The notes under the pieces were generated by a model. The model did not search any database, was not told the DNA's origin, and saw only the letters and a list, made by a program, of their open reading frames with translations. Of a stretch of DNA of 64,000 nt, positions 9,266-24,826 are shown in pieces. Both the position numbers and the translations under genes were made by a program. Location: assembly GCA_018304105.1 (NCBI GenBank), contig JAGVWX010000019.1, forward strand, positions 1,411 through 65,410, in the 5' to 3' direction. The stretch comes from Candidatus Pacearchaeota archaeon. Its GTDB lineage: Archaea > Nanobdellota > Nanobdellia > Pacearchaeales > GW2011-AR1. How positions within the stretch are numbered: position 1 is the first letter of the stretch; every line of letters starts with the position of its first letter.

Positions 9266-10303
9266 ATGAATAAGTTTTTTATTCTAACACTAACGATTAC
9301 AAGTATTTTACTATTTAGCACGGGGGTTTTTGCTTTTAGCACGACGACTTACTTACAATCTCAGGGAGTTGGTTCTTATGCACAGTTATCTCCAAATCAC
9401 GTAACTTCTGGAGTTCAGTCAGTAGACCTATATGCTCCATTCGATAATGCAAATGGTCCGGAAGGTCGAGTAAGAATACAATTTAATGAACCCGTAACTC
9501 TGAATGATATAGCAAATATTTCTTGGCAGCAATATGTTGCACAAGGATATGCATCCCATGTCGACGTCAAAATTGATACAGACAACAATGGAACCGAAGA
9601 TGATGCATTAGTATTCGAGTATGCTAAAGTTAGTTCTGCTAATTGTGATGCAACACCTTATCCTACTGGACAAATGAATACTTTTGGAACTTTGGGTATC
9701 GTAAATAATGCGGCTATGGCCTGGTTATCATCAGGAGATGCAGGACCCTGCGGCGGCAGTCCGACTTTTTATTGGCATTCGTTAACAGACTGGAAATTAG
9801 GAAATAACACAAACGGTATTAACGGTAGCACCAAGGTAACCGCTTTCGAAATTGAAGTCGATGGATGGATTGAACAATCCGAGGCATTCATTGATGATGT
9901 AATGCTTAATGGGCAGCTCATTCAGAACTTTGAAGGAACGCAAATCGGTTCTGGCGAGGTCGGCACAGATTTCACGTTTTTGGCTAATCCAAATCCATTG
10001 AATTTTGGGACAATCGTTGCTGGGCATTCCGGCGTGGCTGTTTCGACATTAACAGTTGGGGCATCTAATTTGAAAGTTCAGAATGTAGCTGTAACTTCAA
10101 TTATCGGAACTGTCTTTAATGGAACAAATGTGCTTTTTAGTCAGAATGGAGGAATTAGCTACATGTCTGCACCGAGTTGGACACCGTTATCAATTCCCCA
10201 CAATACAGTTTCTAATCTGCATGTGAAGTTAACAATTCCATCTGGAACTCCTTCTGGAGCATTTAGCGGACAAATAGTGTATACTGTTATGGAAGCAATC
10301 TAA
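9266..10303 (+). CDS. secreted hypothetical protein (first of a three-gene surface operon)
   Basis: Signal peptide (ILTLTITSILLFSTGVFA). An SD-like aggagg lies 9 nt upstream of the ATG. No recognisable domain. Confidence 0.55.
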   Translation: MNKFFILTLTITSILLFSTGVFAFSTTTYLQSQGVGSYAQLSPNHVTSGVQSVDLYAPFDNANGPEGRVRIQFNEPVTLNDIANISWQQYVAQGYASHVDVKIDTDNNGTEDDALVFEYAKVSSANCDATPYPTGQMNTFGTLGIVNNAAMAWLSSGDAGPCGGSPTFYWHSLTDWKLGNNTNGINGSTKVTAFEIEVDGWIEQSEAFIDDVMLNGQLIQNFEGTQIGSGEVGTDFTFLANPNPLNFGTIVAGHSGVAVSTLTVGASNLKVQNVAVTSIIGTVFNGTNVLFSQNGGISYMSAPSWTPLSIPHNTVSNLHVKLTIPSGTPSGAFSGQIVYTVMEAI

Positions 10304-10304
10304 T

Positions 10305-11048
10305 ATGAAAGTTCAAATTTTTTCTTTTTTCTTTTTTATATTGGTTTTCTCTAGCTTGGTTGGCGCGTCATTGCAGTTAGACAGGGGAAGCTTGGTTTTC
10401 AGTCTCGGCTTAAACGAAAGAGCTTGCAAGACAGTAAGAATTTCGTCGGGCGATTATTTCGGGGGAATTCAAATCAAAGATATATGGGCGGGGACTCCTG
10501 ACGAAGCAAGGAATTTTGGGGCGTATAATTTTACTTCGGAGGATCATGGCCTTTCAATTTCTTATGCTAAGCCAATTAGTAACCTTCAGAATTCTGTTGA
10601 TGAAGAAGTTTGTTTGGAAGGTTCGAAGCTGGGAGATTACAAAGGAGCGATAATTTTTACTCCAGAATCATCTGAGCAGATTAATGTTGAAATTGGAACA
10701 TGGCTTTTAGTTCATGTTTCCGAAAATCCGCAAGAATTAACTGAAAAACAAATGTCTGTTTTTAGTTCTGGAAGCGGAAGCGGCAGTTCAGCTTTATCTG
10801 GACAGAAAGTGTCTGATGAAACAGTGAGCAAAACGAATGGGAATTTTGACACTTTAGCTTACACACGCGAGGGGCAGCAAGAAGCATCGTCTCCTATAAT
10901 CGGAACAGTTGTTAACGAAGACGGCTCATCCAGAAATACTGTTATTAGCATCATAGTCATATTCATTGTCGCAATTGCGCTTGCGATGTTTTTTATTCAG
11001 CGCAGGAGAAGAATAGCGAGAAATCCATGGTTAAATTCTCAATATTAA
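10305..11048 (+). CDS. secreted protein with C-terminal TM anchor
   Basis: Starts 1 nt after the previous stop. Signal peptide, Ser/Gly linker, C-terminal helix VISIIVIFIVAIALAMFFI followed by QRRRR. Confidence 0.55.
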   Translation: MKVQIFSFFFFILVFSSLVGASLQLDRGSLVFSLGLNERACKTVRISSGDYFGGIQIKDIWAGTPDEARNFGAYNFTSEDHGLSISYAKPISNLQNSVDEEVCLEGSKLGDYKGAIIFTPESSEQINVEIGTWLLVHVSENPQELTEKQMSVFSSGSGSGSSALSGQKVSDETVSKTNGNFDTLAYTREGQQEASSPIIGTVVNEDGSSRNTVISIIVIFIVAIALAMFFIQRRRRIARNPWLNSQY

Positions 11049-12988: not shown

Positions 12989-13126
12989 TCGAATGAAATG
13001 AGAAGAGAAAATGATCGGCCGGAGGTCGGGCTTTTCGCTTTCAGCGAAGCTGAACTGGAATGGAAAAATGAAAATGTGCAAGTTTCGCAGCTAAATCTTT
13101 ATAAATTCATGGAGGTTTAATAAAAT

Positions 13127-13309
13127 ATGGCACAAGAAATGAATCTAGACGTGAAGGAAATATTGACCAGGTTGGCAAGGCTTCAGGCAGATGTAGAATA
13201 TATTAAGTCCAATATGAAATTGGAAGACGAACTGAAAGAAGAGATGAAGGCGTGGGAAGAAACGGGCGCGGAAGACTGTGCTAATTTTCTTGAAAAACAT
13301 AATTTATAA
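13127..13309 (+). CDS. putative antitoxin partner of MazF
   Basis: 60-aa helical, acidic protein. Its TAA stop overlaps the ATG of the MazF-like gene by 1 nt. TATA ctttataaat lies ~25 nt upstream. Confidence 0.55.
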   Translation: MAQEMNLDVKEILTRLARLQADVEYIKSNMKLEDELKEEMKAWEETGAEDCANFLEKHNL

Positions 13310-13638
13310 TGGATAAAGGAGAATTGTGGGTTGTGTCGTTTCCTTTGAGAAAGGGAAGGGAGCAGAGCGGAAATCGGCCTGCCGTTATTATGGCGGATAC
13401 GATGACCGATATAGTATTGGCTGTTCCATTAACATCTAACTTGCAGGCTCTAGAAGAGTTTTCTTTTACGCTTGGGATTAGGAAATCTCAGCGAAACCAG
13501 CTGGATAAAGATTCTGTTGCGTTGATTTTTCAATTGCAAGCAGTTGATAAAAAGAGGCTTGTTCATAAAATGGGAAATTTGGAGGATTCCGATTTGGAGC
13601 AAATTAATAAAAAGCTAAGAGATTTATTGAAACTATGA
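13309..13638 (+). CDS. mazF: MazF/PemK family endoribonuclease toxin
   Basis: 109 aa. GELWVVSFPLRKGREQSGNRPAVIM...VLAVPLTSN matches the PemK/MazF pattern. Confidence 0.85.
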   Translation: MDKGELWVVSFPLRKGREQSGNRPAVIMADTMTDIVLAVPLTSNLQALEEFSFTLGIRKSQRNQLDKDSVALIFQLQAVDKKRLVHKMGNLEDSDLEQINKKLRDLLKL

Positions 13639-14864
13639 AAATGGAAGTATCAAAAGTTAAGGGATTTCAGGATGTTTTGCCGCCTGAAAGTCTGAAGAAG
13701 GCAAGAGTGAAGGAAGTTATTGAGAAATGGTTTAGGCTTTATGGGTTTGTGCCTTGGGAGACGCCGGTTGTTGAGTATGACGAGCTGATGAGACCGGACA
13801 ATTTACCTAGCGAAGGAGTTGATGAGGCAGTTTCGGACAGGTTTAAGCTGCAGGACAGGGGAGGAAGAAATCTTGGACTTAGATACGAATTTACTTTTCA
13901 GCTTTCTAGGATTTTGAAAGAGAATCCGAATATGAAAATGCCGATTAAGAGATATCAAATTGGGGAAGTTTTCAGGGATGAGCCGATTTCTGCGAGGAGA
14001 TTCAGGCAGCTCACGCAGTGCGATGTTGATATTATTGGAGACGCTACAATAAATCCGGATGCTGAGGTCTTGGCTTGCTTTGCTGACATCTTGAAAGAGT
14101 TGAAAGTTGAGTTTGAGATTGTTGTGAATAACAGGAAACTTCTTGAGTCGATTATTGACAGTGTTGAAATTCAGAACGTTAAAGGAGTCATGAGAGAATT
14201 AGACAAGATGGACAAGACGGGAATTGATGAAGTAAAAGCTAATTTGAGAAAGTATGCAGAGGCGAATCAGATTATTACGCTGTTGAGGCTGCTTGAGAAA
14301 GATTTGGCTTTCTTCAAAGAGAATGGATTTGATGGGGTTGACGAGCTGGTTGAGTTGATGGAACTTTGCAAAGCTTACGGCGTGAAGATCAATTTTAATC
14401 CTGGTTTAATTAGAGGGTTTGGATATTACACTGGAAATGTTTTTGAGATTAGAGTTAAAGACAGCAAAGATTCTATCGCTGGAGGCGGAAGGTATGATAA
14501 GAGCGTTGGAAAATATCTTGGAAGAGAGATTCCAGCTGTTGGAATTTCATTCGGGCTTGAGAGAGTTACTGAAATGGCGAGTGTGAAAATGGATGGATTT
14601 CCTAAAGTGCTAATTCTAAGTATTGAGCAGGACTTGGCGGCGATTAAACTTGTTGTAAAGTTAAGGAAGGAAGGGATTTCTTCAGGAATTGATTTCAGGA
14701 AAGTCGGGAAAGGAATGGATTATGCGAACGCAATGAAAATTCCTTATGTTGTTTTTCTCGGGGAAAGCGAAGTCGGAAGCAAAAAGTACAAGTTGAAGAA
14801 CATGGAAACGGGGAAGGAAGAGCTGTTGAGCGAATCTGGGTTGATTAAGAAACTGGGGAAGTAG
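13635..14864 (+). CDS. hisS: histidine--tRNA ligase (class II)
   Basis: 409 aa. VKGFQD N-terminus, motif 2 YQIGEVFRDE, HisRS signature AGGGRYD, AVGISFGLERV, C-terminal anticodon-binding-like domain. Confidence 0.85.
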   Translation: MKMEVSKVKGFQDVLPPESLKKARVKEVIEKWFRLYGFVPWETPVVEYDELMRPDNLPSEGVDEAVSDRFKLQDRGGRNLGLRYEFTFQLSRILKENPNMKMPIKRYQIGEVFRDEPISARRFRQLTQCDVDIIGDATINPDAEVLACFADILKELKVEFEIVVNNRKLLESIIDSVEIQNVKGVMRELDKMDKTGIDEVKANLRKYAEANQIITLLRLLEKDLAFFKENGFDGVDELVELMELCKAYGVKINFNPGLIRGFGYYTGNVFEIRVKDSKDSIAGGGRYDKSVGKYLGREIPAVGISFGLERVTEMASVKMDGFPKVLILSIEQDLAAIKLVVKLRKEGISSGIDFRKVGKGMDYANAMKIPYVVFLGESEVGSKKYKLKNMETGKEELLSESGLIKKLGK

Positions 14865-14923: not shown

Positions 14924-15127
14924 ATGACAGAAACAGCAAGCATAGAAAAAGTGTATATGGAACTTCTTGCGTTGAAGAAGGAGATAGATTTTATAAAAAC
15001 GCGCATTATGGATATAGAAGTTGTTATGACTTCTGAGGAAGAAGCTCAATTGGAAGACGCTCTTGAGCAGCACAAAAAGGGAAAAACAAAGAAACTGGAA
15101 GATTTGAAAAAAGAATTGGGTGATTAA
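14924..15127 (+). CDS. putative antitoxin partner of RelE
   Basis: 67 aa from the ATG at 14924; the listed ORF starts at an upstream TTG. Helical, acidic. Overlaps the RelE GTG start by 8 nt. Confidence 0.55.
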   Translation: MTETASIEKVYMELLALKKEIDFIKTRIMDIEVVMTSEEEAQLEDALEQHKKGKTKKLEDLKKELGD

Positions 15128-15383
15128 GGTGTTTGAAATTTTCTTCGGTTCTCAGCCAGAAAAATTTCTTAAAAAGGCTGAGAAAGAATTAAGGGAAAGA
15201 CTTTGGGATAAGCTAGATGAATTGAAATTAAATCCGTTTCCCTCTGATGTTGTTAGAGTTGTTGGCACGAAAGAAAAGGCGTTTCGGGTGAGAGTTGGAG
15301 GCTATAGGATACAATATTATGTTTTTCAGGATAAAAAGGAGATACTTGTTTTTGACATTGATAAAAGGGGAAGAGCGTATTAA
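15120..15383 (+). CDS. relE: RelE/ParE family toxin
   Basis: 87 aa. FRVRVGGYRIQYYVFQDKKEILVFDIDKRGRAY is the typical RelE C-terminal pattern. Confidence 0.8.
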   Translation: MIKVFEIFFGSQPEKFLKKAEKELRERLWDKLDELKLNPFPSDVVRVVGTKEKAFRVRVGGYRIQYYVFQDKKEILVFDIDKRGRAY

Positions 15384-15414: not shown

Positions 15415-16278
15415 CTAGCAATCCAAAAGATTGACTTTCATGTTTATTACGTCGAGGGTTTGGCCGTCAATTGAGATTGTTGACTTGGCTTTGTCAAGTG
15501 TTATTACTGCAGATTCTTTGTATGTAACAGAGTGTTCCCTGATTTCCCCGGAGACGTAGAATTTTATTTTGTTCGGGCCGATTTGCTGTGCGCTGTTGAC
15601 GTTATAAGTGTAAGATATTCTGTTGCTGTTTTGGGCCGTGAAGGAACCCCTTCCCAAGGAAGCTTTTCCGGACGGAACATAAAGGTTCAAACGGTTGCGT
15701 TTGGTGTAAGTGTTTTCGCCGATATTTGTGGTGCCGCCGGTTGCTCTGACAGAACAGATTTGAACTGATTTAGGAGAGCGAACTATTATCTCCTTTTTTG
15801 AACTTTCGAGTTCTATGCCGGGTGTTGTTACAAGATACTTCGAAGTGTATTTGCCTGGAAGAAGCGAGACTGAATTAATTGAAACATTGTATTTTAAAGC
15901 GCCGGGAAGATATCCCTGATCGTAACCGTAACCATATCCATAACTATAACCGTATCCAAACTGATAATCGGAAGTTTCAACCTGCTCGATTTCGATTCCA
16001 GGGCAGGAATTAATTAAAGTAGCGTTTGGGAAAAACTCGCAGGAAATTTGCTGCGGGCCGTCAAGAATCAGAGTTAATTTTTGGATGTCGAGAAGTTCTC
16101 CTTCTTTAATTTCGACTGTAATTTGCAAGCCGAGCATCTCGCCCTGGGTGATATCATCGTCGAGGATTGTGAAATTCAAGAAGTATGCGCCGACAGGGCC
16201 AAGCATGAGCAAAGAGAAGATGATGAATAATGTTATGAAAATTGAAATAATCTTTTTATTTAAGAAGTAATTTTTCAT
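15415..16278 (-). CDS. secreted GY-loop surface protein, paralog 1 of 5
   Basis: Signal ending LMLGPVGA. Conserved module ...LTLILDGPQQISCEF...CPGIEI...FGYGYSYGYGYGYDQGY...GALKYNVSI...PGKYTS. Unique C-terminal domain. Confidence 0.75.
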   Translation of the reverse strand: MKNYFLNKKIISIFITLFIIFSLLMLGPVGAYFLNFTILDDDITQGEMLGLQITVEIKEGELLDIQKLTLILDGPQQISCEFFPNATLINSCPGIEIEQVETSDYQFGYGYSYGYGYGYDQGYLPGALKYNVSINSVSLLPGKYTSKYLVTTPGIELESSKKEIIVRSPKSVQICSVRATGGTTNIGENTYTKRNRLNLYVPSGKASLGRGSFTAQNSNRISYTYNVNSAQQIGPNKIKFYVSGEIREHSVTYKESAVITLDKAKSTISIDGQTLDVINMKVNLLDC

Positions 16279-16527
16279 AATTGAAATAATACATTCTTAT
16301 ATATAAATGTATTTCACTTTAAAGAAGTAGTAAAAGTTTAAAAGTTGTTCTTTCTTATTGCCGATTTTTTGTTATTTTTGGGTAATGATTTTTGATGAGT
16401 TTGACTATACGAATTCTCGGTTAAAATAGCTTCAATTGTTATTGCTCACAAGAGACTAGGTCACTCGCTTCGCTCATGAGGCAGCCAGTTCGCTAATTAC
16501 TTTTGACTATTTTGTTGTGGGTAAGAT

Positions 16528-16664
16528 TATGCTCTGTCCGGAATAGGTTTTCTGATTGATTTTATGATTCCCACATATTTCGACTATCGTCGAGTCCCAC
16601 CCTCACCACCCCTCACCTCCGCCCCAAGATGCTAGTAAAATCAATAAACTCCGGACAGAGCATA
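16528..16664. repeat. MITE-like element with 15-bp perfect terminal inverted repeats
   Basis: tatgctctgtccgga (16528-16542) and tccggacagagcata (16650-16664). aagatta is present on both outer sides. The interior carries the C-rich box cccaccctcaccacccctcacctccgcccc. Confidence 0.7.
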
Positions 16665-16740
16665 AGATTAGATAATAATATATGATATTATGGTTTGGGC
16701 TTTATTAATTCTAGGGGCTGTTATTTATTGAGAGAGATAA

Positions 16741-17634
16741 TTATTTTTCTTTTTTGACTGGAGGCATTTGCGGCAATTTTCTGGACTTTCTGGAGCGGAG
16801 ATGGGAATTTTCCCGGACTTTTACGATTATGTTAATTGTTGTTATGATGCAGTTCATCAATAGGAGGATGACGATAAATTGAAGACCTTCTGGTAAACTG
16901 TTGCCCGCAAAATCAATTGAATATCTGGTTTCTGGCTCGATATTGCTTATGCCGAGAGAGTTTAAAGAGGAATCTTCATCCAAGAAGTTTGTGCCGTCTT
17001 CGAGAAGGCAAAGCCTTTCCTGTTCGGGCATTTCTTCAATTTCGCAGGCGTTGAGGTTTCTGTAACATTCTCTGTATTGCATGCCGGCAGAGCAGGATGA
17101 CCAGGAATTGCAGGTCCATTCTTTAGCGCAGGAGCTTCCGTCGCTGTTACCGTCGTCTCTTAATGTTATGGTTTTTCCGGATTGAGTGTAAACTTGGTCA
17201 TTGATTTCGGCTTTGAAAAGAGAGGTATATGTTCCGGGCTTTAGTTTCTTAGTGTCGATTTCAACTTTGTATTTTAAGGTTCCGGGAGCGAAGCCATAAC
17301 CGTAGCCGAAATTATAGTCGTAACCGTAGTTATAGCCAGGATCTTGGATTTTTGTGATTTTTATATTATCGCAACCGTTGAGAGGCTGGCCATCTTTGTC
17401 AAATGTGCATGAAATTTTTTCTCTTCCAGAGAGTTCGAGAATTAATTTATTTATTGAGGGTCTTTCGGTCTGTTCGATGTTTATTTGTGCAGTGAAAGTT
17501 ACCAGCTCGCCTTGTTTGGGTTTTTCTTTGCTTACTAAAAGATTTAACGTGAAACCGTCTACAGGACCAGACATTAGCAATAGAGCTATTACAAATGTTG
17601 TGAATAATAGTGCAAGAATCTTGCTTTTAGCCAT
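16741..17634 (-). CDS. secreted GY-loop surface protein, paralog 2 of 5, with TSP1-like Cys module and TM segment
   Basis: Signal LLMSGPVDG. GYNYGYDYNFGYGYGF loop. GTLKYKVEID...PGTYTS. CAKEWTCNSWSSCSAGMQYRECYRNLNAC. Hydrophobic helix near the C-terminus followed by a basic tail. Confidence 0.75.
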   Translation of the reverse strand: MAKSKILALLFTTFVIALLLMSGPVDGFTLNLLVSKEKPKQGELVTFTAQINIEQTERPSINKLILELSGREKISCTFDKDGQPLNGCDNIKITKIQDPGYNYGYDYNFGYGYGFAPGTLKYKVEIDTKKLKPGTYTSLFKAEINDQVYTQSGKTITLRDDGNSDGSSCAKEWTCNSWSSCSAGMQYRECYRNLNACEIEEMPEQERLCLLEDGTNFLDEDSSLNSLGISNIEPETRYSIDFAGNSLPEGLQFIVILLLMNCIITTINIIVKVRENSHLRSRKSRKLPQMPPVKKEK

Positions 17635-17775
17635 GCCCTTTTAGATTAGGCGAACTTTTTAAATGTTGCGGCTGTTGTAATTATAGAATGGTATCTATTA
17701 TAATTTTAATTGATATGTTACTAAATAGTGGTAGCAAATAATAAAGTTTAAATAGATGTTGTACTTGAGCAGATT

Positions 17776-18231
17776 ATGGTAAATAGAAGCAAAGCGAATA
17801 GTCAGAATTCTTGGATGAAGTGGAGAGAATTCGGAGCAGTCGGAGACAGATACGGAAGAGTAGCCGGAGAAGCATACGCGTTTTTTGATTGCAATGCGAG
17901 CGGTGAGCAAATTGGGCAAGAGCTGCCGACTATCCGAGAATTAGTTAAAACTCCGAAGGGATTGGTGCTTCGCTTGTCTGAGGAAGGGCTGCCATATCTT
18001 GGTCCAAATACTTTTGATGATGAACTATTGAATATTTATTCAGATGCTCAAGAAGCAGGGATGAGATATAGTCTTGCAGCGAGAGGCCTTCCGACTATGA
18101 CTAACCGCCAGACCGCTGACGAATTGGCTGCTATCTTGAATCAGGCTTATCAATCACCGCTGTATGAAGATGGAGAGACTTTCAGGGGAAGAGTTTTTTA
18201 CAAGGATGGGGAAAGATACGAAGATAGATAA
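17776..18231 (+). CDS. hypothetical cytoplasmic protein
   Basis: 151-aa ORF with no TM segment and no recognisable motif. Interrupts the GY-protein cluster. Confidence 0.45.
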   Translation: MVNRSKANSQNSWMKWREFGAVGDRYGRVAGEAYAFFDCNASGEQIGQELPTIRELVKTPKGLVLRLSEEGLPYLGPNTFDDELLNIYSDAQEAGMRYSLAARGLPTMTNRQTADELAAILNQAYQSPLYEDGETFRGRVFYKDGERYEDR

Positions 18232-18285
18232 ACTATAAATAAGGGCTTTAGAGTGAAGACCTTATTAGAATTAAATAAATAGAAT

Positions 18286-18528
18286 CTATAGAAAATATCT
18301 TTCTTCTAAATTAACTTTCATTTTAGAGAGTACAGGATTTTTCACATTAGATTTTATTTTTTCAATCTTTACATCGGGCAAAATCTTTTCCAAATAGCTA
18401 TTAATTAATGAAATATCTCCTCCAGAGGTAACTGCAAAACGAACCGCATTTTCACTATCCCCTGAATTTTCCACTAAAACGTTTTTGTTATTCTCTAAAC
18501 AAAGTTTCCTAATTCTCCCTCTTAACAT
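18286..18528 (-). CDS. small hypothetical protein
   Basis: 80-aa ORF. An in-frame upstream extension of 14 codons lacks a canonical start, so the N-terminus is uncertain. Confidence 0.35.
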   Translation of the reverse strand: MLRGRIRKLCLENNKNVLVENSGDSENAVRFAVTSGGDISLINSYLEKILPDVKIEKIKSNVKNPVLSKMKVNLEERYFL

Positions 18529-18643
18529 GATTTTGGTTAATGGAGACGATTTAGTAGTGATTTCATAAACATCCTAGTCTATAAGTTTTTCTGACATAAA
18601 TTTTAACATCTTTTATTATTAATAAATTTATCAGTTAAAGGTT

Positions 18644-19618
18644 TTAGTAAAACTTGCCAGAGTAGTATGCCGGCCTGTTTTTTAGATGATTTTTTCTTAT
18701 GGCTATTAGAATTGAAAGCCCGCCGATAACAATTACGAAGCCGGCGACGAGCAAAAATAGGTCTGCGATTGAAGCTCTTTGGAATGTGCCTATGACTGCG
18801 CCGGTGATTCTTGAAATTCCTTTTGGAGAATTTTTAGTTTCAGTTACAGTTGGAACGGGGTTATCTGATTCGCCGGATGCTCCGGAATTTTTGGGTTGAG
18901 TGTTTTGAAGAGCGAGGTTTTGTGTTGTGCAGGTTTGTGCGACTGAAGGAACTGAAGGGAAGATGGTGCATGAAGGATTTTCTAACGAGCATGAGCGGGT
19001 TTGGATACCGTTGGAACATTGAGACCAGTCGGTGCAGGACCAAGTAGTTTTACATTGGGTTCTGTGCCCTCTTGAGCCGCCGTTGACTTGAGCTGGAAGA
19101 GCTGAGATTGAGAACGACTCTCCGTTTTCTGAGAATGTGTTTGAATTGTTCTTCATTTTAACTGAGAGTTTTGTTGTGTAATCGCCTAAGGAATAATCAG
19201 TTGTGTCGAGAGTTATTTTGTAAGTTAGTTTGCCTGAGAGCTTGCCGCCATAGCCGTATCCGTAACCGAAGTTGTAACCATAACCGTGAGAGTAACCGTA
19301 ATTGTAACCGTAGCCGTAATCAATCGTGCCGACTCTTTTGATTTCTAATATGCCTTTGCAGCTTCCCATGATTTCACCGTTTGGAGAGAATTTGCATGTT
19401 TGAGATTCAGGTCCTTCAAGAGTTAGGATTAGGAATTCTATTGGAAGAGATTCGCCATTTTGGATGTCAACTTCTACGGTGAACTGGATTTTTTGGCCTT
19501 GGAAGGGGGATGAGTTGTTTACTTTTAGAAAAAGGTCAAAAGCTTGAGCAGGACCAGCTATTACTAAGAGTAGAATTACTGCTGCCGAGACAAACCATGA
19601 TGTTGTTTTGTATTCCAT
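18644..19618 (-). CDS. secreted GY-loop surface protein, paralog 3 of 5, with TSP1-like Cys module and C-terminal anchor
   Basis: Signal VIAGPAQA. DYGYGYNYGYSHGYGYNFGYGYGYGG loop. GKLTYKITLD...GDYTT. CKTTWSCTDWSQCSNGIQTRSCSLENPSC. ITGAVIGT motif, then a TM helix. Confidence 0.8.
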   Translation of the reverse strand: MEYKTTSWFVSAAVILLLVIAGPAQAFDLFLKVNNSSPFQGQKIQFTVEVDIQNGESLPIEFLILTLEGPESQTCKFSPNGEIMGSCKGILEIKRVGTIDYGYGYNYGYSHGYGYNFGYGYGYGGKLSGKLTYKITLDTTDYSLGDYTTKLSVKMKNNSNTFSENGESFSISALPAQVNGGSRGHRTQCKTTWSCTDWSQCSNGIQTRSCSLENPSCTIFPSVPSVAQTCTTQNLALQNTQPKNSGASGESDNPVPTVTETKNSPKGISRITGAVIGTFQRASIADLFLLVAGFVIVIGGLSILIAIRKNHLKNRPAYYSGKFY

Positions 19619-19819
19619 GTCATTCTTTGCCTGCTTATTCCAGAAAACTAAGGTATTTAACTCTTATGTCTTTGCTGTAACTTTGAAATGGTAAATTATT
19701 CTGTAATTGTAAGAAAGGTACAGAAGGTTTAAATAAAAATTTAGGGGTTTTTGCTTTGGTGCGAAATTTTAACACTGTTGCCTCCCTTGGTTTAAATAGG
19801 ATGAAGCTAAGGGAATTTA

Positions 19820-20578
19820 ATGGAAAAGAGAAAACTTGTTTCGGTTTTGGTGACTGCGGGGATTTTGGGAATCCTGCTGATGGCTGGGCCAGCGTTTGCT
19901 TATCTTGTTTCGTTGAATATAGCAGATGATTCTGTCGAAGAAGGGCAGGACGTAGAGTTTACAGCTAATGTTCAAATAGGAAGCGATGAGTTTGTTGATA
20001 TTCAGAATCTGACTCTGGAAGTTTTTGGGCCGGTGAATAGGTCTTGTGTTTTTGATGTTAACGGAAATGAGCTTTCGGGATGCGAAGATGTGGATGTTGA
20101 GCTGGTGTCTGCGCCGAACTTTACTTTTGGGTATGGATATGGCTATGGATTCAATGACGGGAATTTAACTTATAACATAACTGTGAAGGGCGACGGCCTT
20201 GAAGCTGGGAATTATTCAAGTGAAATTATTTTGAATGTTGCAGGAGATGAAAGTAGTTATGCCGGACCCGATTTTGAAGTTCTTGCGAGAAATGAAAAAG
20301 TAGTTGTCTGTCATGTGCCTCCTGGAAATCCTGGAAACGCACAAACTATTAGTATAGGTGAAAGCGCAGTTGCAGCGCATCTTGCCCATGGAGATTATCT
20401 TGGGGAATGTGTTGAAGGTGAAAATAGTTCTAATGGGAACAGCGGGAATAGCCAAGGGAATGGACAGGGGAATAGTAATAACGGAAATGTCGGCGTGAAC
20501 GGCAATAGCGGGGGTAGTAATAGCAATGTCAGCGGGAATGGAAATTCCGGTGGAAATGGAAACGGGAAGAAAAAATAA
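19820..20578 (+). CDS. secreted GY-loop surface protein, paralog 4 of 5, with CHVPPGNP...HGD...GEC motif and N/G/S tail
   Basis: Signal LLMAGPAFA. FGYGYGYGF loop. GNLTYNITV...GNYSS. VVCHVPPGNPGNAQTISIGESAVAAHLAHGDYLGEC, then a Gly/Asn/Ser low-complexity tail ending GKKK. Confidence 0.8.
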   Translation: MEKRKLVSVLVTAGILGILLMAGPAFAYLVSLNIADDSVEEGQDVEFTANVQIGSDEFVDIQNLTLEVFGPVNRSCVFDVNGNELSGCEDVDVELVSAPNFTFGYGYGYGFNDGNLTYNITVKGDGLEAGNYSSEIILNVAGDESSYAGPDFEVLARNEKVVVCHVPPGNPGNAQTISIGESAVAAHLAHGDYLGECVEGENSSNGNSGNSQGNGQGNSNNGNVGVNGNSGGSNSNVSGNGNSGGNGNGKKK

Positions 20579-20902
20579 TTCTTAATCTGTTTTAGGGCTT
20601 TGCTGAAAATCTCTTAGAATTGTTTTACTCGCAACCACGCTTGTTATTATATCTGCAATATCCTCTCGCGTAACATGCTCACTCGCAGCCACGCTCGAAA
20701 TTTGCTAATTACTTGCACTCGCGTAACATGCTCGCCTTTATCACGTCTTCAACCCCGCCCCCAATCAATATAGTGAATCAATAATTTGACTTTTTTAGCA
20801 AAGATTGTAGCTACATAACAGTAAAAGTTATTTGGAAGTACATTAACGCCCATTAACAGAAAGTTTATATAGTGCGAACTTTTGGGTTTCTGAGTAGAGA
20901 AA

Positions 20903-22192
20903 ATGAAATATTCCAAAACATACTCTGGACTTATTGCATTTAGCTTAATTGCAATTTTAGTTCTTGCAGGGCCGGCTGACGCGTTTGTGAGCTCTTTGGA
21001 AGTTGATGATTCGGTTGTTGAGCAAGGAGAGAAAGTCGTGTTCACAGCGAGCGTTGAACTTTCCAAGGGAGAGTTTGAAGGAATAAACGATTTAATCATT
21101 GATGTTAATGGTCCGGAGAATTTGACTTGCGAGTTTTCGGTTGACGGCGAGGTAAAGTCCGGATGTGAAGGCATGAAGATAGAAAGAATATCTGCTCCTG
21201 ATTTTGGATACGGTTATGGTTACGGATACGGCTATGGGTATGGATATGGTTACGGATACGGCGAAGTTAAAGGAAAGCTAGTTTATAAGATTACGCTGGA
21301 TACAGACGGTCTTGACGTGGGAAATTATTCGACTTCCTTAACGGTAAAGTATGGTTTGAGCGAGCAAAAAGTTGAAGGAGAGAGTTTTGAGATAGTCCAG
21401 AAGCACGAGGGGAAAGTAACTATTTGTCATGTTCCTCCTGGAAATCCTGAAAATGCGCACACGATAAAAGTTGGCGCTTCGGCCGTTCCTGCTCATTTGA
21501 TGCACGGAGATCATGTTGGGGAGTGCGCAGAAAATAATGATGACAATAATGAAAGCGAAAAGGAAAATGGGCGCGGTGGTTCGCACGGGGGTGGTTCTGA
21601 ATCTGGAAGTTCTGACGAAGAAGACGATGAAGAAGGAAATATTTACGAAAACTTGACTTATGAAAATGAAACTAATGGGCATGGAAATGGGACTTGGGAA
21701 AATGAAACTCATGAAGATGATGACGGGAAAAATGAGACTAGCCAACATGGAAATGAAGCAATGAAGAATGAAACTCATGAAGACGAACACGACGATGGGA
21801 ATGTAAAAAACGAGACAAGGAAAAACGAAACTGAACAAAATAGAAACGATGACCATGAAGATTCAACAGTAGAAGATTCTCAAGACGATGAGCATGAGGA
21901 TAACGGAAACACAAACGGCAAGGAAGATGAAGTTCAGGAAGAGCAAGGCAATGGAGATAGCAAAGATGGGAACAATAGCCAAGATGAGGAAAGCGACGAT
22001 GACGAAAATGATAGCCAAGATAAGGGGAATAACGGAAACGGAAGTAATGATAACGGAAACAGCAGAAATGTAAAGGTTGAGAAGAGCAATAATGGAAATG
22101 GAAATGATGGTGGGGAAACGGGAAATGGAAATTCAGGAAACTCAAACGGGAATAATGGAAATTCTGGCGGAAAAGGAAAGAAAGAGAAGTAG
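20903..22192 (+). CDS. secreted GY-loop surface protein, paralog 5 of 5, with CHVPPGNP...HGD...GEC motif and long acidic N/D/E/G tail
   Basis: Signal VLAGPADA. FGYGYGYGYGYGYGYGYG loop. GKLVYKITLD...GNYST. VTICHVPPGNPENAHTIKVGASAVPAHLMHGDHVGEC. About 230-aa low-complexity tail. Confidence 0.8.
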   Translation: MKYSKTYSGLIAFSLIAILVLAGPADAFVSSLEVDDSVVEQGEKVVFTASVELSKGEFEGINDLIIDVNGPENLTCEFSVDGEVKSGCEGMKIERISAPDFGYGYGYGYGYGYGYGYGYGEVKGKLVYKITLDTDGLDVGNYSTSLTVKYGLSEQKVEGESFEIVQKHEGKVTICHVPPGNPENAHTIKVGASAVPAHLMHGDHVGECAENNDDNNESEKENGRGGSHGGGSESGSSDEEDDEEGNIYENLTYENETNGHGNGTWENETHEDDDGKNETSQHGNEAMKNETHEDEHDDGNVKNETRKNETEQNRNDDHEDSTVEDSQDDEHEDNGNTNGKEDEVQEEQGNGDSKDGNNSQDEESDDDENDSQDKGNNGNGSNDNGNSRNVKVEKSNNGNGNDGGETGNGNSGNSNGNNGNSGGKGKKEK

Positions 22193-22682: not shown

Positions 22683-22782
22683 TTAATTTGTTCTAATTCT
22701 AGTTAACTCCTGATTGGTTCTTGTGTAACTCTAAAATGGTAAAAAGCACAAGGTTTAAAAGGATTTAATAAGTTTGAGAAAT

Positions 22783-24009
22783 ATGATAGACGTAATGCAG
22801 AGTAGTGGTAAAAGGTTAAAGGTTATTGTCATGAGTCCGGCGTATAATGAAGCGGAGAACATAGCCAAGGTGATTAAAGGAGTGCCGAGAGAGATTCGTG
22901 GAGTTGGGGAAGTTAAGGTAATGGTGATTGACGACCATTCGAGCGATGGCACTGCTATGGTGGCAAAGAACGCAGGGGCAGATTATGTTTTCAGGCAGAA
23001 GCAGCGTTCAGGACTCGGAGCGACTTTTAAGAAAGGAATCGATATTGCTTTACGACTCGGAGCTGATATAATTGTGAATATTGATGGAGACGGACAGTTC
23101 AATTCGAAAGATATTCCGAAGCTTATTGCGCCGATTCTGGAAAATGAAGCTGATATGGTGACCTGCTCGAGATTCTTGCAGCCGGAAATGACTAAGAACA
23201 TGCCTTGGAGCAAGAGATGGGGGAATAAAAGATTTTCAAATTTAATAAGCAGAATAACTGGAGAGAAATTTTCTGATACGCAGTGCGGGTTTAGAGCTTA
23301 TTCGAGAGAGGCGGCTTTGAGGCTGAACCTGAAGGGGAAGTTCACTTACACGCAGGAAGTTTTCATAGATTTAGTTGAGAAAGGAATGAGAATAAAGGAA
23401 GTGCCGTGCGAGGTTCAGTATTTTGAAAACAGAAAGTCGGTAATTTCGAGCAAAAGTTTTACGGGACTTGTGAAAGGATATGGATTCAAGAGTTTGGGAA
23501 TAATCGCGAAGACGACAAGAGATACGCAGCCATTGACTTTCTTTGGGATGCCTGCATTGATGGTTTTTATTTTGGGATTTATTGGAGGAGCGTACTCTTT
23601 TGTTTATTGGCTTATTTACAGCGCGACGACGCCGATTAGAACTTTGTTTAACGTTTCTGTTTTTTTTATGATATTTGGAGTTGCGCTTGGGATTTTAGCG
23701 ATGGTTGCAGACATGCTGAAGACGATAAAAGGAACGCAGGATGAGCTTTTGTACAGGTTGAAGAGGAATGAAGTTGACCAGAGCCATGCGATGAAGACGC
23801 TGAACGGGCATGTTGAGAAAGTCAATGGAACGATGAAGAAGATTAATGGACATGTGAAAGAGATGAAGATGAACGGAAATGGAAGCGGACACGCGGACAA
23901 GAATGATAAAGAGAATGAAGTTGAGATGTTTGCGGAAGGAAAAGATGAAAAGAGTGTTGGATATTATGCGGGATTGAATGCCCATAAAAGACGAATGAAA
24001 GAGCGATGA
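22783..24009 (+). CDS. GT2 family glycosyltransferase (dolichyl-phosphate hexose synthase-like) with C-terminal TM and coiled tail
   Basis: VIVMSPAYNEAENI, VIDDHSSDGT and NIDGDGQF (DxD) motifs, two TM helices, charged tail. The ATG at 22783 is preferred over the listed TTG at 22774 because the TATA aggtttaaaagg lies ~22 nt upstream. Confidence 0.8.
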   Translation: MIDVMQSSGKRLKVIVMSPAYNEAENIAKVIKGVPREIRGVGEVKVMVIDDHSSDGTAMVAKNAGADYVFRQKQRSGLGATFKKGIDIALRLGADIIVNIDGDGQFNSKDIPKLIAPILENEADMVTCSRFLQPEMTKNMPWSKRWGNKRFSNLISRITGEKFSDTQCGFRAYSREAALRLNLKGKFTYTQEVFIDLVEKGMRIKEVPCEVQYFENRKSVISSKSFTGLVKGYGFKSLGIIAKTTRDTQPLTFFGMPALMVFILGFIGGAYSFVYWLIYSATTPIRTLFNVSVFFMIFGVALGILAMVADMLKTIKGTQDELLYRLKRNEVDQSHAMKTLNGHVEKVNGTMKKINGHVKEMKMNGNGSGHADKNDKENEVEMFAEGKDEKSVGYYAGLNAHKRRMKER

Positions 24010-24284: not shown

Positions 24285-24530
24285 TTAATCAGAGAAATCA
24301 ATCTCGCTAGGCAGTTTTTTATCTAACTTTTGCAACAGTCTTTTGAGAAGATAAACTCTTTTTCCAAAAGCAAATATTCCGACGCTCTTTACTTCGCTCG
24401 TGTTTTCATCCTTTCTAATGAAAACGCCTTCTTCCGGTTCTTCAGTAAAGCAGGGCGTCGGCTCTCCGAAAAATACCTCTAAAAAATCTGCTTCCTTGTC
24501 GTAATGGATTTCATATATTGTATCTGTCAT
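24285..24530 (-). CDS. DUF2283-like small protein (putative antitoxin)
   Basis: 81 aa. IHYDKEADFLEVFFGE...GVFIRKDENTSEVKSVGI matches the Y-D-x-x-x-D pattern I associate with DUF2283. Confidence 0.65.
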   Translation of the reverse strand: MTDTIYEIHYDKEADFLEVFFGEPTPCFTEEPEEGVFIRKDENTSEVKSVGIFAFGKRVYLLKRLLQKLDKKLPSEIDFSD

Positions 24531-24826
24531 TTTATTTTATCCTCGTAATATGCTGTTACGATGTACCCTTCGCCGTTTAAATATTTAACTAAGACGAGGA
24601 GATATTTGTAAGGCGATGGCCTATGTTTGAAATACTTATAGTAAAAACCGGCTTTCTCATCTAGTTTAGGAAAAGTAATTTTATCGGGCTCTTTTATGGT
24701 CTCTTCTAGTTCTTCTGCGTTTTCAACTTCCGGATGTTTTTTTCTTATATGAGTCCACCTTTCCTGAGAAAGATGAATTCGCTTGCCGGATTTGTCAGTT
24801 ACTTCAAATACGTAACTCATTGTCAA
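24527..24826 (-). CDS. putative toxin partner of DUF2283 (RelE/barnase-like, family uncertain)
   Basis: 99 aa. Overlaps the downstream DUF2283-like gene by 4 nt. The HLSQERWTHIRKKHPEV motif is typical of small nuclease-toxin families. Confidence 0.45.
   Translation of the reverse strand: MTMSYVFEVTDKSGKRIHLSQERWTHIRKKHPEVENAEELEETIKEPDKITFPKLDEKAGFYYKYFKHRPSPYKYLLVLVKYLNGEGYIVTAYYEDKIK

Follow-up and report, generated by a model that had tools for sequence, protein, structure and literature searches.

What could a run of alternating glycine and tyrosine residues be doing in the N-terminal part of five proteins encoded close to each other in an uncultured archaeon? The question is raised by a 64,000-nucleotide stretch of contig JAGVWX010000019.1 from a Candidatus Pacearchaeota archaeon (hereafter the window, meaning the whole stretch analysed), a chromosomal segment of a DPANN archaeon in which five open reading frames (ORFs), P1 to P5, form a cluster. 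These genes very probably encode an undescribed family of exported surface proteins with an immunoglobulin (Ig)-like head, and the Gly-Tyr (GY) tract within that head is a selected feature of the protein. The members of the cluster are:

15415..16278, minus strand: P1, ORF of 287 aa; predicted signal peptide aa 1-31 (nt 16186-16278)
16741..17634, minus strand: P2, ORF of 297 aa; predicted signal peptide aa 1-27
18644..19618, minus strand: P3, ORF of 324 aa; predicted signal peptide aa 1-26
19820..20578, plus strand: P4, ORF of 252 aa; predicted signal peptide aa 1-27
20903..22192, plus strand: P5, ORF of 429 aa; predicted signal peptide aa 1-27

Five paralogous, probably exported proteins

All five ORFs lie exactly where an earlier note on this DNA had placed them, together with the common N-terminal module that it had described. 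In the alignment the proteins are 27-29% identical to each other across the first ~170 residues, and the invariant columns (G-P in the c-region of the signal; G of 'QGE'; C...F...G...C; G-Y/Y of the tract; G-x-L-x-Y; G-x-Y) agree with the residue pattern given in that note. When a hidden Markov model (HMM) of the N-terminal 175 aa was run against the six-frame translation of the window, P1-P5 alone were recovered, with E-values of 1e-68 to 1e-77; no sixth family copy is present there, the next match having an E-value of 0.5. The resemblance of the five modules is far beyond chance. The identical P5 protein occurs in 62 index blocks of the assembly collection, and the longest contigs inspected that carry it come from groundwater metagenomes (ENA ERZ27254749, JGI 3300025121, PRJNA268031). 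P3 is identical to a protein labelled at NCBI as belonging to a Candidatus Pacearchaeota archaeon metagenome-assembled genome (MAG; P0018), and P4 differs from a 251-aa variant (P0005) only by indels and substitutions in the tail.

In regard to export, the signal peptides were assigned by the rules for Sec and signal peptidase I, from which the cleavage sites were also deduced. By these rules all five proteins qualify. They have an n-region with a net charge of 0 to +3 and a stretch of 20-22 uncharged residues (mean Kyte-Doolittle hydropathy 1.6-2.5), 15-22 residues being typical of an h-region; the pair G-P occupies -6/-5, and the residues at -3/-1 fit [AV]-x-[AG]. The signal motif ...L[IL]AGPAQ[AG]|F is conserved family-wide, and helices modelled by AlphaFold2 at residues 3-20 of P3 and 3-22 of P5 fall within the signal peptides. 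A type IV pilin-like (class III) signal was considered and rejected, as P1-P5 have no conserved [KR][GAS] before the h-region, and their G-P-A-x-A follows it. A K-I-I-A-G-I-x-T motif recurring in many homologs is not conserved in P1-P5 and has no [KR]G at the cleavage position.

At the other end, a hydrophobic helix and, behind it, a K/R-rich tail mark P2 and P3 as predicted type-I membrane proteins; P1, P4 and P5 have no membrane anchor. Potential N-glycosylation sequons (N-x-S/T) are in excess in P4 (8 against 3.7 expected) and P5 (14 against 6.2 expected). The earlier suggestion of exported cell-envelope proteins is thus supported by the n-, h- and c-regions and small -3/-1 residues in five of five proteins, the anchors of P2 and P3, a Cys pair in the head and the sequon excess of P4 and P5.

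The common head domain

The part shared by all five mature proteins, ~135 aa long, occupies the following positions:

15772-16185, minus strand: P1 Ig-like module, aa 32-169
17155-17553, minus strand: P2 module, aa 28-160
19100-19540, minus strand: P3 module, aa 27-173
19901-20290, plus strand: P4 module, aa 28-157
20984-21403, plus strand: P5 module, aa 28-167

AlphaFold2 was run with family alignments on full-length P3 (m465b86b7a3ff) and on residues 1-210 of P5 (mb5a5d2d0e000), and in both models the predicted head is an Ig-like beta-sandwich of 8-10 strands. The mean predicted local distance difference test score (pLDDT) of the P3 model is 77.8, with ~97 in the sandwich core, 46-57 in the tract, 88-95 in a 6-Cys module and a disordered linker beyond it; the P5 model has a mean of 90.3, with ~97 in the core, 54-63 in the tract and 91-96 in a mini-domain with the motif CHVPPGNP. 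The GY tract is the sole low-confidence part of the head in both (46-63). In the P5 model a short strand lies on either side of it (103-105 and 119-121), which is how the stem of a hairpin with an unmodelled tip would look. Whether the module is Ig-like, with the tract as a loop or hairpin, was a question posed in the earlier note, and the models answer it with a predicted Ig-like sandwich and a loop or hairpin inserted between two strands. The head also has a conserved, local Cys pair that forms a C-x11-C loop.

Foldseek searches with the two models against PDB gave generic Ig-like sandwiches only, at E ~1e-4, among them nanobody and light-chain variable (VL) domains (TM-scores 0.55-0.62, target), GH123 and transglutaminase N-terminal domains, and RbmA. 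Viral type-I glycoproteins, again generic Ig-like, were matched in BFVD, and the closest whole-chain fold neighbours in this viral library are type-I envelope glycoproteins. At the level of fold class, and for predicted models, the head belongs with the Ig-like/E-set beta-sandwiches, a class recognised by two sheets and a Greek-key arrangement of 7-9 strands.

Sequence searches did not place the head in any described family. There was no above-cut-off match for P1-P5 in Pfam, NCBIfam or PHROG, none in Pfam for 51 module sequences scanned singly, and none at E<=10 when PDB sequences were searched with a profile of the full P3-type alignment. The best recurring sub-threshold match was WxLIP_HBD (PF11797), seen in 10 of the 51 modules with a best E-value of 4e-4; for P2 it reaches 14.9 bits against a cut-off of 28.9, and the similarity lies in the last two strands. 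CARDB (PF07705), which the earlier note had raised, was never among the Pfam or NCBIfam matches of P1-P5 or the 51 modules, and similarity to it was not detected. Identity with the sulphur globule protein (SGP, PF17228) was also rejected, since the matches (16.6-20 bits against a cut-off of 26.7, in 8 of the 51 members) are confined to the GY tract and purely compositional. S-layer families gave no sequence match for P1-P5 in Pfam and NCBIfam, and a size of 250-430 aa with type-I topology is atypical of S-layer proteins, which are very abundant and build a two-dimensional paracrystalline lattice. A described family already known for GY tracts, for which the earlier note had left room, was found in none of Pfam, NCBIfam, PHROG and PDB, and a literature search on such tracts in archaeal and DPANN surface proteins returned no description of this family. 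Because the libraries hold no match and Foldseek finds generic neighbours only, the head is assigned to the Ig-like or E-set sandwiches, as a sequence family that has not been described.

Among known systems, the nearest are prokaryotic Ig-like/E-set surface domains such as Big_13, PF11797 and Vibrio RbmA, with which the head shares the predicted fold class, the signal peptide, the surface setting and the weak WxLIP_HBD similarity; longer family members even join it to Big_13 and other Ig-like repeats. It differs from them by the lack of any above-cut-off match, by its position as first domain, by its own C-x11-C loop and by the obligatory poly(Gly-Tyr) insertion, which is a feature of none of them. 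Antibody V domains offer another comparison, as V-domain chains are among the best fold neighbours and as both bovine germline IGHD segments (e.g. SYSGYGYGYSYGY) and the Tyr/Ser 'binary code' antibodies and monobodies display a length-variable Tyr/Gly/Ser/Asn/Asp loop on an Ig sandwich. However, the identity is 8-14% at E ~1e-4, without homology, the Cys pair of the family is local and not the B-F disulfide, and its loop, fixed in the germline and of conserved composition, does not diversify somatically. The likeness to antibodies is functional and convergent only, and equivalence of the loop to the third complementarity-determining region (CDR3) is not implied.

The Gly-Tyr tract

In the five proteins the tract is found at:

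15922-15969, minus strand: P1 GY tract, aa 104-119, DYQFGYGYSYGYGYGY
17290-17337, minus strand: P2 GY tract, aa 100-115, GYNYGYDYNFGYGYGF
19250-19321, minus strand: P3 GY tract in two blocks, aa 100-123, DYGYGYNYGYSHGYGYNFGYGYGY
20129-20152, plus strand: P4 short GY tract, aa 104-111, GYGYGYGF
21200-21259, plus strand: P5 longest pure GY tract, aa 100-119, DF(GY)9

Tract statistics were collected from 185 family representatives with both flanks aligned, the spans being anchored by HMM columns. In every one of these 185 the tract is present, at the same position, with a length of 11-50 aa (median 23) and a composition of 29% Tyr, 28% Gly, 8% Asn, 7% Ser and 5.5% Phe. Successive aromatic residues are spaced by exactly two positions in 84% of cases, and the alternation forms one block in 116 proteins, two in 63 and three in 5. 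The flanks are conserved as well, with [DNS][FY]GYGY... before and ...GYG[YF]xxGxLxY after the tract; in three P1-type orthologs the tract measures 16, 8 and 18 residues.

At the DNA level the picture is less regular, with all four Gly codons (GGA, GGT, GGC, GGG) and both Tyr codons (TAC, TAT) interleaved, and with Tandem Repeats Finder reporting only imperfect period-6 arrays of 61-78% matches at the tracts. Across four assemblies the locus is 100% identical in three independent ones, and the fourth has 4 single-nucleotide polymorphisms and 0 indels over 7.8 kb. A contingency locus or coding microsatellite was accordingly rejected on the grounds of the imperfect repeat, the mixed codons and the absence of length polymorphism in these assemblies. 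The heterogeneous codons on which the earlier note had based its view of a tract kept at the protein level are therefore real. The presence of the tract in all 185 representatives, the mixed codons, the imperfect repeat and the lack of indels among the four assemblies show that selection keeps it at the level of the protein.

In composition, in the short-period alternation of Gly with an aromatic residue and in a capacity for aromatic stacking and inter-chain beta pairing, the tract recalls the SGP family (which P5 matches below threshold), trematode eggshell and oocyst-wall proteins, and the FUS-like LARKS (kinked segments of low complexity, rich in aromatic residues) with their [G/S]Y[G/S] motifs. 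Those sequences are long and repetitive or disordered, whereas the tract described here is short and is set in a folded domain.

Related to this region, a single in-frame stop was observed in otherwise intact P3-type genes of three other loci (L009 83-1135, L010 152-1204 and L011 3027-3857). L009 and L010 represent the same population in two samples, where a TGA replaces the conserved Gly of G-K-L-x-Y just past the tract, and in L011 a TAA stands in place of a Tyr codon within it, so that the 11 metagenome loci contain two independent cases. Either recent null alleles or errors of sequencing may explain them.

C-terminal regions

Behind the common head the five proteins diverge:

15418-15768, minus strand: P1 C-terminal beta-rich domain of ~117 aa, starting C-S-V-R and ending in Cys
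17008-17130, minus strand: P2 6-Cys knot, aa 169-209
16810-16884, minus strand: P2 C-terminal transmembrane helix, FIVILLLMNCIITTINIIV, followed by a K/R-rich tail
18929-19054, minus strand: P3 6-Cys knot, aa 189-230, followed by a disordered linker
18788-18814, minus strand: P3 invariant motif S-R-I-T-G-A-V-x-G, aa 269-277
18692-18769, minus strand: P3 transmembrane helix, aa ~284-309 (modelled helix 284-313), with a basic tail ending FY
20297-20410, plus strand: P4 CHVPPGNP mini-domain, aa 160-197
20411-20575, plus strand: P4 N/G/S-rich low-complexity tail, ending GNGKKK
21413-21526, plus strand: P5 CHVPPGNP mini-domain, aa 171-208
21527-22189, plus strand: P5 acidic N/G/E/D-rich tail with six K-N-E-T sequons, ending GKGKKEK

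The three C-terminal types distinguished in the earlier note hold, although the beta domain of P1 is not unique as stated there and defines an orthologous subfamily in other genomes. The knot of P2 and P3 is a 42-aa module with the pattern C-x-T-x-W-x-C-x-x-W-S-x-C-x-x-G-x-Q-T-R-x-C-x6-C-x(n)-P-E-x-x-R-x-C, modelled at pLDDT 88-95. The same note had called it similar to the thrombospondin type 1 (TSP1) repeat, and the likeness is understandable: ~42 aa, 6 Cys, an extracellular position beside a stalk, and a W-x-C-x-x-W-S-x-C-x-x-G-x-Q-x-R-x-C stretch that recalls the WSxW, CSxxCG and Arg-layer motifs. Still, assignment to TSP1 (PF00090) was rejected, as the six Cys and two Trp are there, CSxxCG is absent, only one Arg is conserved, and neither Pfam TSP_1 (at E<=1) nor any PDB chain (at E<=10, with a profile of 26 sequences of the module) was matched. 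Many solved TSP1 repeats are held in PDB.

In P3 the S-R-I-T-G-A-V-x-G motif sits 6 residues before the modelled transmembrane helix, and at a similarly short distance in other P3-type proteins. Besides the window, this juxtamembrane motif or a related ending is found in loci L006, L007, L009-L017 and L019, and in L020 at 10001-10834 and 13119-14642. An archaeosortase or PGF-CTERM-type sorting signal was considered and rejected, with no NCBIfam match at E<=1 for P1-P5 and with the motif lying a short distance upstream of the helix; sorting-signal models of Pfam and NCBIfam do not match the region. In Pacearchaeota the motif may serve as a C-terminal signal for anchoring or processing that has not been described before. 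In L020 an unrelated 502-aa protein with a signal peptide, encoded beside the cluster, ends in a GAVIGAG motif, a transmembrane helix and KKK, and this ending is related to S-R-I-T-G-A-V-x-G. The P2 helix has a signature of its own, 'LLxNC', which recurs in L005, L006, L010, L013 and L014.

The mini-domain of P4 and P5 is a Cys-bracketed unit of 38 aa, K-V-x-I-C-H-x-P-P-G-N-P-x-N-A-H-T-I-x-V-G-x-S-A-V-x-A-H-L-x-H-G-D-x-x-G-E-C, in which C, H, H, H, G-D and C are invariant and which AlphaFold2 models at pLDDT 91-96. It was also found as 2-3 tandem copies in Gemmatimonadota proteins, with up to 80% identity, and alone behind a signal peptide in ~75-aa proteins; it has no Pfam match and its profile matched nothing in PDB at E<=10. 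It could serve bacteria and archaea alike as an extracellular module that binds metal or is stabilised by disulfides. The Lys-rich tag that terminates the tails of P4 and P5 recurs as GKGKNK in homologs.

The family at large, orthology and gene order

A HMMER search of 1.84 billion cluster representatives gave 1,407 proteins at E<=1e-3, 1,069 at E<=1e-10 and 325 at E<=1e-30, so that the family comprises about 1,000 cluster representatives. Among the best 150 matches listed, the module is always N-terminal, coming first behind the signal peptide. The members that carry a name come from Pacearchaeota or Nanoarchaeota MAGs, apart from single outliers assigned by their labels to Bathyarchaeota and Methanosarcinales, and a scan of viral contigs found no relatives. 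Longer members append Big_13 and other Ig-like repeats. One outlier (L008 7947-9752), 588 aa long and encoded on a contig that bears the label 'uncultured Methanosarcinales archaeon', has the signal LVLAGPAQAF, the head module with a degenerate, interrupted tract (YSFGSYYGYGYEPSGAYIGISGSGYGYGYQ) and then long Ig-like or cadherin-like regions rich in N-glycosylation sites; either the family reaches beyond DPANN or this contig is mis-binned.

The window proteins were compared with the tandem genes of three other genomes by BLASTP, and orthologs scored 200-340 bits against about 100 bits between paralogs. P1 and L005c share 338 bits, 56% identity and the same C-terminal domain, and L007b is another P1 ortholog; P2 scores 329 bits with L005b (56%) and 273 bits with L006b (47%), and P3 295 bits with L005a (45%). 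Furthermore, when every module-bearing ORF was classified in 15 non-redundant loci, the same order recurred on the same strand: a P3-type gene (6-Cys knot, SRITGAVxG, transmembrane helix), then a P2-type gene (6-Cys knot, 'LLxNC' helix), then a P1-type gene (beta domain ending in Cys). A P3-type gene followed by P2-type and/or P1-type was seen in 8 of 10 informative loci, the full trio in the window, L005, L010 and L014, and partial sets in L006/L013, L007/L016, L018 and L019.

Because orthologs resemble each other more than paralogs do, and because the gene order is kept, the P1-, P2- and P3-types are old orthologous groups in a fixed order, that is, a conserved envelope gene set and not a rapidly diversifying adhesin repertoire. 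The word 'diversifying', used in the earlier note, does not agree with these scores, with the shared order or with a locus that is identical across independent assemblies. Orthology and synteny are a better guide here than dN/dS among the paralogs, whose synonymous sites are saturated at 27-29% protein identity.

Possible function of the tract

In regard to the mechanism in which the tract takes part, we tentatively propose self-association into a coat, a possible reading held at somewhat less than even confidence, in which both the tract as contact element and its partner are inferred. The mature proteins share the predicted Ig-like sandwich closed by its local Cys-Cys loop, in which a flexible, hairpin-like tract alternating Gly (or Ser/Asn/Asp) with Tyr/Phe takes the place of one inter-strand connection. 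With aromatic residues at every second position, such a tract would turn all its rings to one side and show only Gly on the other, giving a sticky loop driven by composition, and in a hairpin it would present a flat ladder of tyrosines in need of cover. The same head is carried on different supports, namely a 6-Cys knot stalk with a transmembrane helix in P2 and P3, an unanchored beta domain in P1, and the mini-domain with probably glycosylated tails in P4 and P5. The Tyr faces would then make non-covalent aromatic contacts between heads, anchored members would retain unanchored ones, and a glycosylated coat would result; the GY loops could also touch apposed surfaces.

Association between heads is favoured since the head alone is common to all paralogs and the only part that unanchored members have in common with anchored ones, and since the unanchored members need retention. 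The recurring gene order, and the glycosylation and envelope genes beside the cluster in the window and in L020, also speak for proteins that act as a set. Contacts driven by Tyr are plausible because of several precedents: in cattle, germline D segments code for tracts of the GYGYGYGY type, which end up as the CDR-H3 loops of Ig domains (PMC7366855), loops of Tyr and Ser only suffice for binding on Ig-like scaffolds (PMC5405424), and the aromatic-Gly/Ser segments of LARKS form reversible beta-sheets between proteins (PMC10477902). A more specific and unlikely version is that the GY hairpins of anchored and secreted paralogs interdigitate as a 'tyrosine zipper', building a DPANN-specific glycosylated coat or gluing the symbiont to a partner in trans.

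Several points weigh against a coat made by self-association. The P3-type gene stands alone in L012 and L015, so a hetero-complex is not obligatory, and among the loci inspected the CHVPPGNP-type paralogs (P4, P5) occur only in the window, their homologs existing elsewhere. The GY-GY contact is a proposed one, the low pLDDT of the tract leaves the loop conformation undefined in the models, and the signal peptides rest on rules. Clustering of paralogous genes can persist without physical interaction. Finally, the Big_13 and other Ig-like repeats of the long members, typical of adhesins, point as much to external binding.

External binding is indeed the main rival, possible though rather doubtful: the proteins would be adhesins whose GY loop acts as a low-specificity, CDR-like Tyr paratope for a host envelope, glycans or mineral and organic surfaces, and the paralogs would be anchored or shed presentations of one binding head. 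Besides the added repeats of the long members, this would fit the Ig V-like fold neighbours, the good binding of Tyr/Gly/Ser loops in antibodies and monobodies (PMC7366855, PMC5405424), the sub-threshold similarity to the host-binding domain of WxL-interacting proteins that recurs in 10 of 51 members, and the origin of nearly all named homologs in DPANN lineages, whose cultured representatives are described, in at least one account (PMC11291902), as ectosymbionts living in cell contact. However, over ~1,000 clusters the loop keeps its composition and is not hypervariable, independent samples carry an identical locus, the paralogs belong to old orthologous groups of fixed order and are not lineage-specific expansions, and secreted unanchored forms are hard to accommodate, with host and ligand hypothetical.

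It is improbable that the tract is a neutral low-complexity spacer, a tolerated insertion generated by slippage in redundant surface proteins. Such an origin would agree with the length range of 11-50 aa between orthologs (8, 16 and 18 in the three P1-type proteins), with the low AlphaFold2 confidence and with nonsense alleles in or beside the tract in two populations, but a spacer would not be expected at the same position in every alignable member, with the aromatic alternation of period two strictly maintained and the flanking motifs conserved. Moreover, the codons are scrambled, so slippage is not maintaining the tract, and length polymorphism is absent in the four assemblies.

Highly improbable is a covalently cross-linked wall protein, in which the tyrosines would be oxidatively coupled (dityrosine, isodityrosine, dihydroxyphenylalanine) into a hardened coat, as likened to plant glycine-rich, trematode eggshell and oocyst-wall proteins. 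Literature matches to GYGYGYGY do include a liver-fluke eggshell protein and the Toxoplasma tyrosine-rich oocyst wall protein, and SGP is another GY-rich structural shell, but that match is below cut-off and compositional, and long repetitive structural proteins differ from a tract that forms a short loop within a folded domain. In addition, the neighbourhoods annotated in the window, L001-L004 and L020 contain no recognisable gene for a peroxidase, laccase, tyrosinase or similar enzyme, and oxidants would be scarce in the groundwater source if it is largely anoxic, as we assume.

Least probable of all is a membrane-active loop, likened to the Gly/aromatic fusion loops of class II fusogens and to C2-domain loops, whose hairpin tip would enter the interfacial zone of the host's or its own membrane and aid DPANN-host bridges: Tyr favours membrane interfaces, the head is distal on a type-I anchor, the closest whole-chain viral fold neighbours are type-I envelope glycoproteins and the lineage is DPANN, but there is no similarity to fusexins or class II fusogens beyond the generic sandwich, poly-GY does not have the Trp/Leu/Phe hydrophobicity of known fusion loops, the unanchored paralogs are unfit as fusogens, and the idea is entirely inferential.

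Genomic surroundings

The cluster is interrupted and followed by genes that do not belong to the family:

17776..18231, plus strand: small ORF of 151 aa between P2 and P3, no Pfam match
18286..18528, minus strand: small ORF of 80 aa between P2 and P3, no Pfam match
22774..24009, plus strand: family-2 glycosyltransferase with C-terminal transmembrane segments (Pfam Glycos_transf_2, E 2e-22), directly downstream of the cluster

The two small ORFs are probably an insertion, since both are missing from L005, L006 and L013, in which nothing separates the P3-type gene from the P2-type gene. Two small ORFs on the opposite strand were likewise observed between the two family genes of L020. Further family-4 and family-2 glycosyltransferase (GT4, GT2) genes follow ~7 kb downstream in the window, and in L020, a different Pacearchaeota contig, an anchored member and a P1-type member lie beside GT2, GT4, a Polysacc_synt flippase and a CDP-alcohol phosphatidyltransferase (CDP-OH_P_transf). 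The window also holds tRNA-His, tRNA-Ser, a HisRS gene, glycosyltransferases and many toxin-antitoxin genes. Genes of the latter type are dense close to the cluster, at 13309-13638, 15120-15383, 24285-24826 and beyond (PemK, ParE, HicA, NTP_transf_2, PBECR2, NYN), and ParE, HicA and glycosyltransferases also flank family genes in a different Pacearchaeota contig (gene tables of L001 and L020).

TATA-like boxes (TTTATAT, TTTAAAA, TTTAAAT) were seen exactly 29 nt upstream of the ATG of P1, P2 and P4 and 39 nt upstream of that of P5, and no obvious one within 60 nt upstream of P3. Their positions suggest separately promoted transcripts with short leaders, a weak indication given the AT-rich DNA.

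Implications

Neither the fold class nor Ig-like surface proteins in general are new. In the libraries and literature searched, by contrast, no description was found of the sequence family, of a folded domain with an obligatory poly(Gly-Tyr) loop, or of the conserved trio of anchored and unanchored proteins. Pacearchaeota and their relatives are abundant, uncultured and ultra-small archaea with reduced genomes, in which the building of the envelope and the attachment to partners are largely unknown and most surface proteins are unannotated. To these the family adds ~1,000 clusters that have no Pfam or NCBIfam model, with a confidently predicted Ig-like head and a core of three genes, two for anchored and one for an unanchored protein, near glycosylation genes. 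It offers practical handles, such as surface targets for antibodies and proteomics, an assay for tract-dependent association, and lineage markers, and as a natural Ig-type scaffold with a minimalist Tyr/Gly loop it parallels engineered binders. If the tyrosine zipper were true, it would represent a new system of envelope building or attachment, peculiar to the Pacearchaeota and Nanoarchaeota, lineages without cultured representatives, together with a new anchoring motif formed by SRITGAVxG and a transmembrane helix.

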